Assembly (NCBI GenBank): GCA_964355645.1
Contig: CAYHDI010000004.1
Coordinates: 1 to 48,346 of the forward strand
DNA: 48,346 nucleotides
Source of the DNA: an uncultured Candidatus Saccharibacteria bacterium
GTDB lineage: Bacteria > Patescibacteriota > Minisyncoccia > Phycocordibacterales > Zambryskibacteraceae
Direction of reading: 5' to 3'
The notes beneath the pieces were generated by a model. That model did no database searches, was not told the DNA's origin, and saw only the letters and a program-made list of their open reading frames with translations. Made by a program: the position numbers and the translations under genes. Shown here piece by piece: positions 4,291 to 48,346 of the stretch (position 1 is the stretch's first letter; each line of letters starts with the position of its first letter).

Positions 4291-4536
4291 ATGAAGGAAA
4301 TATATTTTTCAATAAAGGAGGCTGCAGAGATCCTTGGGGTCTCTACCCTCACTCTTAGAAACTGGGACAAGTCCGGCAAGTTCAAGCCTCAAAGGCATCC
4401 GATGAACAATTATCGAGTTTACAAACTTTCGGCTCTAGAACACATTATAGAGGATATTGAAAGTGGCACAAACAAAAGCAATGCGGGTAAGGCAGAGAAA
4501 ATTATCAAGAAGCTTATGATAAGGCACGAGGAATAA
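4291..4536 (+). CDS. MerR-family HTH DNA-binding protein
   Basis: SIKEAAEILGVSTLTLRNWDKSGK...NNYRVY is a typical MerR winged HTH. Confidence 0.85.
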   Translation: MKEIYFSIKEAAEILGVSTLTLRNWDKSGKFKPQRHPMNNYRVYKLSALEHIIEDIESGTNKSNAGKAEKIIKKLMIRHEE

Positions 4537-4570
4537 CAAACTTGGACATCGGATGTCCAAGTTTGTTATT
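4532..4570. terminator. Perfect 19-bp palindrome between convergent genes (bidirectional terminator or REP-like element)
   Basis: AATAACAAACTTGGACATC-G-GATGTCCAAGTTTGTTATT; it includes both TAA stop codons. Confidence 0.75.
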
Positions 4571-6023: not shown

Positions 6024-6103
6024 GTTTGAATCAGTATATCAAAAAAAATAATGTGTATAAACCCCTCTCGTTCTTCTCCAGTTCCTTCCCTGTTTCTTTT
6101 CCA

Positions 6104-6140
6104 TACGCTATAATATTGTGGTCGCAATATATTAACGTAT
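6104..6140 (+). repeat. 37-bp quasi-palindromic direct repeat, copy 1 (contains TATAAT, overlaps start codon)
   Basis: TACGCTATAATATTGTGGTCGCAATATATTAACGTAT; 32/37 identical to 6716-6752. Confidence 0.9.
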
Positions 6141-6708
6141 GGGGAAACTTGAAAAACATAGCCAAGAAAGAGCCCGGAGAGAACATCTTCAAAAGATTGT
6201 ATTAGGAACAATCAAAGTTGCTGGCATATTAAGTGTTGGCCTCTTGGCACCAAGTGTCATTGGTGCCATGGATAAATTGGGTCTATTACCAAAATCCAGA
6301 CAAAGAGAATATATCACCTCTTCTGCAGCCAAGCTTACAAAAAGAGGATTGTTGAAATACATAAACGGACATTATGAACTAACAAAAGACGGTGAAAAAA
6401 TACTACGTCAATGGGAATTGTCCGACTACATAATCCATCGCCCAAAAAAGTGGGACAAAAAATGGCGAGTGGTGATCTTCGATATTCCGGAAAAGAAAAG
6501 AAAAACCAGAGACAAAATTACTATTCTTTTTAGACAAGCTGGATTCCAGCGACTACAAGACAGTGTCTGGGTTTTCCCGTACGATTGTGAGGATATTATT
6601 GGTCTACTAAAAACAGATTTCCATGTTGGAAAGTATCTTCTATACATGATTGTTGAAGAACTTGAGAATGACAAGCAACTGAGAAAAGATTTTAATTTAA
6701 TCCGATAA
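6139..6708 (+). CDS. PaaX-like transcriptional regulator with Cas2-like (ferredoxin-fold) C-terminal domain
   Basis: wHTH-like segment (YITSSAAKLTKRGLLKYINGHYELTKDG) followed by WDKKWRVVIFDIPEKKRKTRD...GFQRLQDSVWV, the PaaX-M/Cas2-like signature. Confidence 0.85.
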   Translation: MGKLEKHSQERARREHLQKIVLGTIKVAGILSVGLLAPSVIGAMDKLGLLPKSRQREYITSSAAKLTKRGLLKYINGHYELTKDGEKILRQWELSDYIIHRPKKWDKKWRVVIFDIPEKKRKTRDKITILFRQAGFQRLQDSVWVFPYDCEDIIGLLKTDFHVGKYLLYMIVEELENDKQLRKDFNLIR

Positions 6709-6715
6709 AACTAGG

Positions 6716-6752
6716 TACGTTATAATATCGCGGTCGCAAATTATTAACGTAT
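6716..6752 (+). repeat. 37-bp quasi-palindromic direct repeat, copy 2
   Basis: TACGTTATAATATCGCGGTCGCAAATTATTAACGTAT, starting 7 bp after the stop codon; arms TACGTTA/TAACGTA. Confidence 0.9.
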
Positions 6753-9577: not shown

Positions 9578-10000
9578 AATAACTCCCCTAACCCCTCTTA
9601 CCTTAAGAGGGGTATTCTGGCTATAACATTCTCTATATCTTTCAAAACTTCATTATTCCAAAAACGAACAATCCTTATATCTTCTGTTTCTAAATATTCA
9701 CTCCTTTCTTTATCATAAATTCTAGTATCAACTTTTGTGTGTTGGACACCATCAAGCTCTATGGCCAACCTTAATTTTGGACAATAAAAATCCAAAATGT
9801 ACGGCCCAACACCATATTGACGAAGAAACCTGAACCCATTTATTTGTTTCCTAGATAAACGAGACCACAGAACTTTTTCAGCTTCGGTCGAATTATTTCT
9901 TAATTCACGGCGACGGTCTCTTAAATCTCTATTGTTGTATAGAAATTTGGTTTTCATTTTCTTTTCTTACCCCCTTAACGTAAGGGGGTTGGGGGTTATT
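9578..10000. mobile_element. Candidate mini-element: DUF559 nuclease gene between inverted BoxC/REP-like palindromic ends
   Basis: Left end (+) AATAACTCCCCTAACCCCTCTTA-CCT-TAAGAGGGGT (9578-9613); right end (-) AATAACCCCCAACCCCCTTA-CGT-TAAGGGGGT (9969-10000). Mobility is inferred. Confidence 0.6.
9598..9957 (-). CDS. DUF559 (Vsr-like PD-(D/E)XK) endonuclease domain protein
   Basis: RELRNNSTEAEKVLWSRL, FRFLRQY, YILDFYCPKLRLAIELDGVQH, RIVRFWNNEV signatures. Confidence 0.92.
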   Translation of the reverse strand: MKTKFLYNNRDLRDRRRELRNNSTEAEKVLWSRLSRKQINGFRFLRQYGVGPYILDFYCPKLRLAIELDGVQHTKVDTRIYDKERSEYLETEDIRIVRFWNNEVLKDIENVIARIPLLR

Positions 10001-46757: not shown

Positions 46758-46796
46758 AAAAAAGCCCGCCTGCTCCCGACTAAAGGGAAGGCGGGC
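46758..46796 (-). terminator. Intrinsic terminator
   Basis: GCCCGCCT/AGGCGGGC stem plus T6 on the minus strand. Confidence 0.8.
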
Positions 46797-46860
46797 AGGA
46801 CCTCACCGTTTGATGGGTCTGTGTGCGCCCGGGCGTTCGCCCGGGCGCTTGCTTTGAAAC

Positions 46861-47100
46861 CTACTTCCACTCATCCGCGGAATAGTCACATTCGACGTAC
46901 GACTTGCACGGACCCGGAGTCATCCCGTCGGGATAAGTCTCTCGAAATCCGTCGACCCCGGGGCTGACCGCGGGCCAGTTCGGCGCGTTGTCGAACCCGT
47001 GAATGTGCAAGTAGATCAACAACTTCCGATCCGTCGATGTGTGATTCACGGTGAACTTACTGTGTCGGCCGTCGCGGTAACGAACGCGAATGTTTCGTGG
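46861..47100 (-). CDS. High-GC3 ORFan or 5'-truncated gene fragment; start uncertain
   Basis: The frame of ORF 46861..47223 shows strong G/C third-position bias from ~47100 to the TAG. The track's start lies upstream of a terminator, so it is unlikely. Confidence 0.4.
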   Translation of the reverse strand, partial: PRNIRVRYRDGRHSKFTVNHTSTDRKLLIYLHIHGFDNAPNWPAVSPGVDGFRETYPDGMTPGPCKSYVECDYSADEWK

Positions 47101-47142
47101 TCGCGAACTATTAACGTATCTGAACAGTAACCTCAGGCAACA

Positions 47143-47179
47143 CAAAACCCCGCACCAGAGCTTGCGCGCGGTGCGGGGT
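47143..47179 (-). terminator. Intrinsic terminator ending the 16S transcript
   Basis: ACCCCGCACC/GGTGCGGGGT 10-bp stem followed by TTTT on the minus strand, ~190 nt past the 16S 3' end. Confidence 0.8.
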
Positions 47180-47368
47180 AATGTTTGTTTATCGTTCTCT
47201 ATTTTGTTCCGTTCCTTCGACACGCTGTAGCTCTTGCGAGCGCAAGCGGTTTGCGTCTTTCTTTCAAGAGGTCAAAACATTTATAGGAATATGTTTAAAT
47301 CCATTGCGAATCCTTAAGGAATCCACAATATTGACTCGATCAGTCGCGACTCTCGTCGGACATTTTCA

Positions 47369-48346
<978 letters not shown>

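Follow-up and report, generated by a model that had tools for sequence, protein, structure and literature searches.

The mini-PaaX locus

The stretch of DNA analysed here, in the following called the window, comprises 48,346 nucleotides (nt) of contig CAYHDI010000004.1 (assembly GCA_964355645.1, GTDB family Zambryskibacteraceae) from an uncultured Candidatus Saccharibacteria bacterium, an ultra-small groundwater bacterium. The subject is a gene coding for a protein of 189 amino acids, here called mini-PaaX, in which a winged helix is joined to a Cas2-like domain, together with a quasi-palindromic repeat of which one copy lies on each side of the gene. The features of the locus are the following.

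6104 to 6140, no strand: upstream dyad copy, 36 bp, TACGCTATAATATTGTGG followed by TCGCAATATATTAACGTA, plus a T; the dyad lies between 6121 and 6122
6109 to 6114, plus strand: TATAAT, a -10-like hexamer within the left arm of the upstream copy and 24 nt ahead of the ATG
6139 to 6708, plus strand: mini-PaaX gene, 189 amino acids; after a long helix at the N-terminus come a winged helix (about residues 40-95) and, at residues 103-177, the Cas2-like domain
6256 to 6423, plus strand: winged-helix region, in which R54, E57, Y58 and Y79 co-vary with half-site positions 15-17
6445 to 6669, plus strand: Cas2-like (PaaX_M) domain, with covariation of residues 121, 125 and 141 with positions 2 and 4 of the core
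6716 to 6752, no strand: downstream dyad copy, TACGTTATAATATCGCGG followed by TCGCAAATTATTAACGTA, plus a T

A repeat search of the window gave 6104-6140 and 6716-6752 as a direct repeat of 37 nt with 32/37 (86%) identical positions and a start-to-start distance of 612. The upstream copy has an internal dyad with arms at 6101-6118 and 6125-6142 which are 83% complementary, and with its CCA/TGG extension the palindrome covers 6101-6142. A degenerate pattern fitting both copies has only these two matches on both strands of the 48 kb and none in 100 shuffles. The ATG (6139-6141) shares its A and T with the final two bases of the upstream repeat, and the stop codon (6706-6708) is followed by 7 nt and then by the second copy, which has the 3' end of the mini-PaaX gene on one side and that of the convergent gene obg on the other. 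An earlier reading of the letters without database searches (the sequence-only reading) had described two such copies, one over a -10 box and the ATG and the other just past the stop, each with inverted arms around a core, and its coordinates and identity are reproduced by the repeat search. TATAAT is found at the same position in most class-1 homologues; a consensus promoter scan did not call a plus strand promoter at 6109-6114 because there is no -35 match. Judged from this arrangement, the upstream copy is a probable operator overlapping the promoter and start codon of the mini-PaaX gene itself.

The best domain match of the protein is Pfam PaaX_M (PF20803) with E 1.7e-18 and 66.9 bits against a cut-off of 24, covering residues 103-177. 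Pfam Cas2 matches weakly (21.1 against a cut-off of 23.8, residues 109-145), as do winged-helix models. The PaaX equivalog TIGR02277 scores 29.2 bits, far below its cut-off of 264.55, and the Cas2 model TIGR01573 scores 27.3 against 24.5, a partial match of positions 2-39 of the 96 in the model to residues 109-145. In GenBank several relatives (P0020, P0086 and P0094) carry the name CRISPR-associated endonuclease Cas2 (CRISPR, clustered regularly interspaced short palindromic repeats), because this partial match barely clears the TIGR01573 cut-off; other members are named PaaX-family regulator or hypothetical protein. PaaX_C, the phenylacetyl-CoA-binding domain, gave no match to the protein, which stops at residue 189 where the ligand domain of PaaX would start. 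A profile alignment to PaaX of E. coli K-12 (E 4.5e-6) spans only residues 55-167 of the 316 in PaaX. The PADLOC defence models gave only a partial Cas2 match and a weak match to the winged helix WH_III-A, and Pfam, NCBIfam, PADLOC and PHROGs gave winged-helix and PaaX_M/Cas2 matches but no HUH/Y1, other transposase or recombinase domain.

In the AlphaFold2 model (mean predicted local distance difference test score 80) a long helix at the N-terminus is followed by a winged helix and this by a beta-alpha-beta-beta-alpha-beta domain. A structure search with this model found E. coli PaaX (8A39) as best match, followed by Rv0674 (3KFW) and 3L09, with Cas2 lower down. Conservation in the family is highest in the Cas2-like domain. 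The residues W105, D106, W109, R110, D115, R124, Q140, S142, V143, W144, P147, Y148, K158, Y169 and F185 do not vary, and D115, the aspartate of the FDI motif, is invariant across 52 aligned relatives; the earlier description of a winged helix-turn-helix-like region joined to a Cas2-like domain with this aspartate agrees with the domain match and the alignment. The motifs IFDIPE and QDSVW look like their counterparts in Cas2, the aspartate in strand 1 and the motif in strand 2. They are aligned to LSEGLD and APSLM in E. coli PaaX, and the motif region is aligned to IVTSIG in Rv0674.

The neighbours in the window are housekeeping genes (signal peptidase, MerR-type, GatB, Obg, MYG1-family, DsbB, DUF559 and SecA). 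As the sequence-only reading had remarked, no cas or paa genes are found among these neighbours, and the search for a repeat array in the 48 kb was empty. This bears on the idea that the locus is a degenerate or minimal CRISPR-like unit made of repeat, "spacer" and repeat plus a Cas2 relative. A palindromic repeat of 36-37 bp would suit such a unit, as would the TIGR01573 score and the Cas2 name given by NCBI to some members. However, the "spacer" is the 570-bp gene itself, the window has no array and neither cas1 nor another cas gene is nearby, the Cas2 match is confined to residues 109-145 with PaaX_M fitting far better, and the repeats vary by locus and co-vary with the winged helix. The lack of an array and of cas genes, and a gene in place of the spacer, already contradict this idea, which we consider extremely improbable.

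Paired palindromes and a predicted autorepressor

Relatives were collected with a scan of one genome per GTDB species which gave 215 loci. The best 80 of the 215 were kept, and all of these are in metagenome-assembled genomes (MAGs) of the Parcubacteria type (Zambryskibacteria, Taylorbacteria, Paceibacterota etc.), often with 2-4 loci per genome. The family counts 560 clusters (50% identity) at E<=1e-30 and about 2,900 at E<=1e-10, has a uniform length of about 190 amino acids and appears to be limited to Parcubacteria-type bacteria of the Candidate Phyla Radiation (CPR). No recurrent partner gene family adjoins the gene across 81 loci, and both neighbours are found on either strand with no clear rule.

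The flanks were compared by the best local alignment of the 120 nt before the start with the 200 nt after the stop, with the 99th percentile of cross-locus scores as threshold. The upstream and downstream flanks of the same locus score above this threshold at 61 of the 74 loci with complete flanks (same-locus median 21.5, cross-locus mean 9.2). Across loci the repeated unit is a 36-bp dyad consisting of two 18-bp half-sites. At 20 loci, the window among them, the dyad is placed exactly 18 nt before the ATG so that the site ends in the start codon, and all 20 sites hold a -10-like hexamer; at other loci the dyad is about 14-105 nt upstream, several of these with TATAAT between the dyad and a near-leaderless start. 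The arms vary by locus, and the kinds of core are few (GCTA/TAGC, CCTA/TAGG, GCGG/TCGC and ACGA/CCGT, the slash marking the dyad). Downstream copies are as symmetric as upstream copies (14.6 and 14.4 of 18 pairs), and the two change together across orthologues, which argues that the downstream copy is under selection. The relation between the copies is direct in 35 and inverted in 16 of 51 loci. Bases of the poorly symmetric spacer are common to both copies at a frequency of 0.75, compared with 0.62 expected from mirror symmetry and 0.39 across loci (p 2.5e-4); this excess suggests that the two copies have evolved in concert or share a common origin. One relative, L025 (CAYGHQ010000085.1, 3154 nt), has an inverted duplication about a perfect palindrome of 108 nt over the mini-PaaX stop codon, and this contig is probably an assembly or amplification chimera.

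Covariation was analysed by setting the protein alignment against the consensus half-site at the 51 loci with two well-defined dyads. The top couplings are residue 57 with position 17 (z 14), 141 with 2 (z 13), 79 with 17 (z 13) and 58 with 15 (z 10). Position 15, which counted from the dyad is the fourth base from the outside, is G with Y58 and A with I, V, T or S at residue 58 (24/24), and TAC at positions 18-16 accompanies R54, E57 and Y79. Position 2 is G with N141 (11/11) and mostly T with D141 (29/35), and T125 accompanies C at position 4. From these contingency tables it follows that the winged helix has residues varying with the outer bases, and the Cas2-like domain residues varying with the core. 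Departures from mirror symmetry are rare in the half-site at 2-4 and 11-18, where symmetry is strongest, and frequent at 5-10, where it is weakest; this distribution fits two separate contact zones. The sequence-only reading had raised the possibility that paired repeats are general and co-vary with the winged helix, and both are found, the pairs at the 61 loci and the covariation in residues 54, 57, 58 and 79.

E. coli PaaX has TGATTC(N27)GAATCA as its site and acts as repressor of its own promoter, Px, by sterically hindering RNA polymerase (PMC9493321). The geometry of the window site is TACG-N28-CGTA, which together with the overlap of the -10 box and the ATG fits a PaaX-like autorepressor, and autorepression is the best reading because the upstream copy holds both the -10 box and the ATG. 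A mini-PaaX homodimer would bind the 36-bp dyad with each winged helix reading the outer 4-5 bp of one 18-bp half-site (TACG...CGTA), and the Cas2-like dimer would sit over the central core (GCGG/TCGC). Protein bound at the upstream copy would block RNA polymerase and in this way the gene would repress itself. The downstream copy would be a second cognate site kept by selection, that is, an ordinary boundary site at the tail of the gene with the feedback operator at its head. More generally, palindromes with bound protein, including the solo sites described below, may act as transcription boundaries, either as roadblock or as insulator; a boundary role is suggested because the solos are biased to gene 3' ends and replace an ordinary hairpin in one syntenic gap. 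We think it likely that mini-PaaX is such a homodimeric binder of 36-bp dyads which represses itself and for which the tail and solo sites are boundaries. The sequence-only reading had offered, as one of two options, an autoregulated DNA-binding protein using paired operators by looping. Autoregulation is the better supported option (by the -10/ATG overlap, the PaaX geometry and the covariation); looping is the part that finds no support, as will be seen when the proposal is weighed.

Solo palindromes and the history of the cassettes

Within 3 kb of the homologous genes 115 of the 122 dyads belong to flanking pairs. The possibility that the sites are private to the gene was refuted by exact scans of all GTDB genomes, which gave many solo sites. 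The pattern TACGTTA-N7-GCTATAGC-N7-TAACGTA has 58 sites, 17 of which adjoin a mini-PaaX gene. All but one (57/58) are in Parcubacteria-type MAGs, and the exception, L110, is labelled Elusimicrobia; it is nearly identical to L131 over the aligned stretch (about 110 nt on each side of the site) and therefore probably a mis-binned Parcubacteria contig. For the class of the window (core GCGGTCGC) the exact scan gave 24 sites: 5 adjacent to a gene, 12 firm solos and 7 at locus ends. Of the pooled exact matches 25 are adjacent to a gene, 41 are firm solos and 16 are undecidable, a ratio which is only indicative because the pattern needs perfect outer arms and this favours solos. One genome, LBYF01, has 10 solos and 1 gene-adjacent site of one class. 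In the solo genomes a paralogue of the matching class was seen wherever it is visible (LBYF, MHWN, MHVH, JACOVQ, CAYFFP, DASZYS, JBBTYJ, CAZYRJ and JBBDZA). The system is thus seen as a protein with a dispersed population of repeats and not as a "self-contained cassette", and the solo copies were unforeseen by the sequence-only reading.

Of 41 solos scored for gene context 40 are intergenic. Spacers which are perfectly symmetric, and which differ from site to site, are found in 14 of the 41 solos and in 3 of the 25 gene-adjacent sites. Seven of the 41 solos abut a palindrome of another class within 36-42 nt, compared with a background of 0.3%. Palindromes of mixed classes are found side by side or end to end at L085:4594-4696, L102:1416-1493, L128:2861-2981, L132:520-640, L147 and L153; each class in such a mosaic presumably matches a different paralogue, and the mosaics are reminiscent of the bacterial interspersed mosaic elements of E. 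coli. In LBYF01 the palindrome is carried at at least 6 loci by an element of about 110 nt with terminal inverted repeats. This element (L099, L101, L125, L128, L129 and L131 in LBYF01, and L110) has terminal inverted repeats of about 23 nt, GATAACTCAACACCTATTCCTTA ... TAAGGAATAGGTGTTGAGTTATC, and the TACGTTA...GCTATAGC palindrome is placed at its centre.

The window itself contains one solo site in addition to the flanking pair, which the sequence-only reading had overlooked.

47083 to 47118, no strand: solo, partly decayed copy, AACGCGAATGTTTCGTGG followed by TCGCGAACTATTAACGTA, located past the 3' end of the 16S ribosomal RNA (rRNA) gene at a distance of about 250 nt

It agrees with the flanking copies at 20 of 23 positions in the core and right arm and at 27 of 37 overall. 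A half-site scan of metagenomes found a related strain (region about 87% identical) with a better palindrome, AACGTTAATGTTTCGCGG followed by TCGCGAACTATTAACGTA, at the same place, and two contigs of unrelated context with solos whose right half is identical; one is in a convergent gap. Mini-PaaX-type sites of other classes are not above background in the window, and a contig scan with the 49-nt repeat alone, which is too insensitive for solos, found only the own locus and one cassette of another organism. The solo is contained in a stretch (46760-47230) with a GC content of about 51%, compared with about 37% around it, between the 16S gene and an open reading frame of 155 amino acids with an HExxH motif. 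This stretch has a minus-strand open reading frame of 120 amino acids without Pfam match, and a shorter reading of 64 amino acids may start at a GTG which the solo precedes by about 33 nt. The 16S rRNA gene (minus strand) has an AT-rich insertion of about 140 nt at 47720-47860 with small tandem repeats and hairpins at 47731-47756 and 47834-47859; such insertions are common in CPR 16S genes.

At L016 and L017 a third cognate copy is found 2.5 kb away in the gap between merR and gatB. In the window this convergent gap is filled at 4532-4570 by a near-perfect palindrome of 39 nt (AATAACAAACTTGGACATCGGATGTCCAAGTTTGTTATT), at the place where L016 and L017 have the solo mini-PaaX-type palindrome. 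The exchange is one of the observations that would suit an explanation at the level of RNA, according to which the palindromes are hairpins serving as terminators or stabilisers at 3' ends and as leader structure at 5' ends, and the protein an RNA binder or RNase of the Cas2/VapD type with its own message and others as targets. The preference of solos for gene 3' ends and convergent gaps, the compensatory symmetry in their spacers, the predicted folds of the window copies (-15 and -9 kcal/mol) and an excess of G:T over A:C mismatches in downstream copies (52 vs 28) would also agree with hairpins. However, upstream copies have no such G:T excess (43 vs 40), no T-run follows the sites, and positions 5-10 are poorly paired in gene-flanking sites, which breaks the stem. 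The class-1 transcript would moreover lack the left arm, since the -10 box is inside it, and the homology indicates a protein binding duplex DNA. We regard the RNA explanation as quite improbable.

The history of the cassette can be followed in the neighbourhood of the window (merR, gatB, obg, myg1 and further on secA), which is syntenic with six other genomes. In these six the cassette is between obg and myg1, and the gap between gatB and obg is 0-35 nt with no repeat (masked by Ns in L017); in the window the cassette is between gatB and obg, and the gap between obg and myg1 is 14 nt. The otherwise empty gatB-obg gap of L023 holds at 985-1019 a sequence, TTTCCTATAGCATACC, resembling the core of the site in its own cassette (ATGCTATAGCAT), which could be a decayed half-site. 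Farther along in the window, at 9598-9957, a small DUF559/restriction-endonuclease-like gene is situated between a thioredoxin-like open reading frame and secA, unlinked to mini-PaaX. In the protein tree the obg-myg1 cassettes form one deep clade, and the window protein is sister to L001 and L033, which have another neighbourhood. At positions C and I the tree shows distantly related cassettes in different genomes. Paralogues within a genome (29 pairs) are 40-69% identical and never identical copies. Duplications of 29-38 nt of flanking DNA outside the palindromes are seen at about 5 loci (including L001, L003, L021 and L051), and no target-site duplications abutting the repeats were found beyond chance across the loci examined. 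This pattern suggests mostly vertical inheritance of the cassettes over long times, with occasional gain, loss or movement of the complete cassette and no sign of recent copy-and-paste.

Three states were seen of one convergent gap, that between genes 13 and 14: L002, L004 and L116 have the full cassette in it, L088 has 223 nt with a single palindrome of the same class and without a gene, and in L076 and L077 it is 35-37 nt long and has no site. The gap in L132 which is orthologous to the cassette gap of L074 has an array of palindromes and no gene. The three states would be compatible with deletion between the repeats or with insertion at a solo, in genomes which are strongly diverged. Excision was looked for in 8 of the 14 public runs listed for the locus, and no joint skips the cassette in their assembled contigs, which drop rare forms; the joints listed are in gatB or come from other organisms. 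In the runs with the full locus one contig spans it without a difference, and no RNA run contains the locus. The cassette is retained in a strain diverged by about 2%, and a metagenome contig of 95% identity has it with both repeats. No relatives were found in 2.9 million viral contigs, PHROGs gave one weak match to a transcription regulator, and the plasmid collection gave one distant match only, to an 11.8-Mb Nonomuraea record.

These data bear on the hypothesis of a hopping cassette, in which the gene and one repeat excise between the direct repeats as a circle of 612 bp, leave the other repeat in place and re-enter at another solo, so that solos are docking sites and footprints. The three-state gap, the window cassette between gatB and obg with its sisters L001 and L033 elsewhere and six syntenic relatives having theirs between obg and myg1, the distantly related cassettes at sites C and I, and the asymmetric spacer bases shared by the copies (0.75 vs 0.62) can all be cited for it. 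On the other hand, 16 of 51 loci have inverted copies, between which recombination would invert the gene and not excise it. No contig skips the cassette in the 8 runs (although contigs hide rare forms), the empty gatB-obg and obg-myg1 gaps are without repeat, the protein has no recombinase domain, no genome has identical copies, and no copies were found on viral contigs, in phage families or on plasmids. We find a hopping cassette improbable. A transposon or insertion sequence was rejected, as there are no abutting target duplications, no identical copies and no transposase. The other option of the sequence-only reading, a self-contained cassette which excises or integrates at its repeats, is borne out in one respect, since the single-repeat empty site it looked for exists in the L088 gap, orthologous to the cassette gap in L002, L004 and L116. 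Active excision and integration find no support in the assembled contigs of the 8 runs, in the close strains, which keep the cassette, or in the diverged paralogues.

The proposed repressor weighed, and known systems

Several observations weigh against mini-PaaX as a self-repressing binder with boundary sites. The solos are in convergent gaps in 15 cases and in divergent gaps in 4, and this preference is unlike the pattern of a promoter regulon. The symmetric, variable spacers of the solos are unexplained by the protein reading alone and point to selection for a hairpin or cruciform, or to a copying mechanism. The Cas2-type motifs, which E. coli PaaX and Rv0674 do not have, seem to exceed what dimerisation would need. 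A fixed loop of DNA between the paired sites is also unsupported, since the dyad-to-dyad distances of 591-771 bp show no periodicity of 10-11.3 bp (Rayleigh test, p 0.08-0.16).

Part of this is taken up by the hypothesis of a repeat system resembling the repetitive extragenic palindromic (REP) sequences and the REP-associated tyrosine transposases (RAYT). The palindromes would here be mobile or self-propagating extragenic repeats, and mini-PaaX the single-copy partner which cuts, spreads or maintains them. The winged helix would aim the Cas2-like nuclease domain, the flanking copies would be equivalent to the REPs flanking RAYT genes, and DNA binding and autorepression might be true as well but would be secondary. 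Published REPIN/RAYT systems have a short gene in single copy, on either side of which stand extragenic palindromes of the class specific to it, and paralogues are dissimilar (Bertels and Rainey, 2011; PMC3337134). The published features match point by point (PMC3337134): a short gene flanked by cognate repeats (61/74 loci), each paralogue tied to its own repeat class, no near-identical paralogues within a genome (40-69%), and cassettes at the same position in deep clades, suggesting long vertical inheritance. The extragenic dispersal (40/41 solos intergenic, 10 solos of one class in one genome), the abutting arrays of different classes (7/41 solos vs 0.3%), the TIR (terminal inverted repeat) element of about 110 nt with the palindrome at at least 6 loci in LBYF01, and solo spacers which are perfectly symmetric yet variable point in the same direction, as do the invariance of D115 and many polar residues of the Cas2-like domain and the tracking of the dyad core by some of its residues. 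A repeat system of this kind accounts better than a repressor for the symmetric variable spacers of the solos, the conserved Cas2-type residues, the arrays and the three-state gap.

Against it stand the missing HUH/Y1 or other transposase motif, copy numbers which are seen in tens and not in hundreds, the absence of target duplications abutting the sites, and the absence of recent bursts apart from the LBYF01 element, which was possibly moved by an unrelated transposase. To our knowledge, no nuclease activity is known for PaaX-type domains. We hold such a repeat system, the chief alternative to the repressor, to be unlikely. Its consequence, equally doubtful but worth stating, would be that in Parcubacteria families of 36-bp palindromic extragenic repeats each co-evolve with a single-copy protein of winged-helix/Cas2 fold whose gene has them on both sides. 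Its Cas2-like dimer would be seated on the dyad and cut the repeats or process them in another way, and these, sometimes with the gene in between, would thereby be spread, lost or symmetrised.

In full-text literature searches no paper was found describing this protein family or its palindromes. Parcubacteria-type CPR bacteria have very few regulators, and CPR genomes are without classical terminators. In spite of such regulator-poor hosts the family occurs in several orthogonal copies per genome, and the covariation between protein and DNA amounts to a simple recognition code. The solos, the arrays and the three-state gap point to a structured population of protein-matched palindromes in CPR genomes, which could be transcription boundaries or, alternatively, an intragenomic repeat system of a new kind. 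The annotation of CPR genomes would profit from either outcome, and a repeat system, if true, would also bear on how Cas2 and CRISPR repeats originated. Mini-PaaX would then be the first Cas2-fold protein acting sequence-specifically on palindromic repeats outside CRISPR, and could be a living model of the first union of Cas2 with repeats of the CRISPR type.

Among known systems, the repressor CI of phage lambda has an autoregulated gene which is bracketed by its own operators, OR and OL. In lambda the operators are triplets of 17-bp sites at a distance of 2.3 kb, with looping between them; mini-PaaX differs by having single sites of 36 bp, about 610-770 bp apart and without helical phasing. 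With Cas2 and VapD the protein shares the ferredoxin-like domain, the aspartate at the end of strand 1 and QxSVF/W in strand 2. In the Cas1-Cas2 complex the Cas2 dimer runs along the central part of a DNA duplex, a position akin to the one we infer for mini-PaaX over the core of the dyad. In contrast to Cas2, mini-PaaX is fused to a winged helix and has no Cas1, array or CRISPR context.

REP repeats and RAYT genes (Nunvar, 2010; Bertels and Rainey, 2011) come close as well. The likeness lies in a short single-copy gene with a cognate palindrome on each side, an own class for each paralogue, paralogues which are very different, extragenic repeats often at gene 3' ends and sometimes in mosaics, and largely vertical inheritance. 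The differences are that mini-PaaX is a winged helix with a Cas2 fold and RAYT an IS200-like HUH/Y1 transposase, that the mini-PaaX repeat is a zero-loop dyad of 36 bp in place of a REP of about 20 nt or a REP doublet, and that its repeats are seen in tens and not in hundreds. On this comparison the mini-PaaX system may be said to parallel REP/RAYT with a partner of Cas2 fold.

PaaX of E. coli and Pseudomonas (PDB 8A39; TIGR02277; Pfam PaaX, PaaX_M and PaaX_C) is a repressor responding to phenylacetyl-CoA. Mini-PaaX differs from it in having 189 and not 316 amino acids, no C-terminal ligand domain and no paa genes near, in the Cas2-type motifs IFDIPE and QDSVW which are absent in PaaX, and in the second site behind the gene, the dispersed solos and the several orthogonal paralogues per genome. 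In both proteins the Cas2-like dimerisation domain comes after a winged helix at the N-terminus, and the inverted half-sites are about 27 bp apart in both, TGATTC-N27-GAATCA for PaaX and TACG-N28-CGTA for the predicted binding of mini-PaaX.

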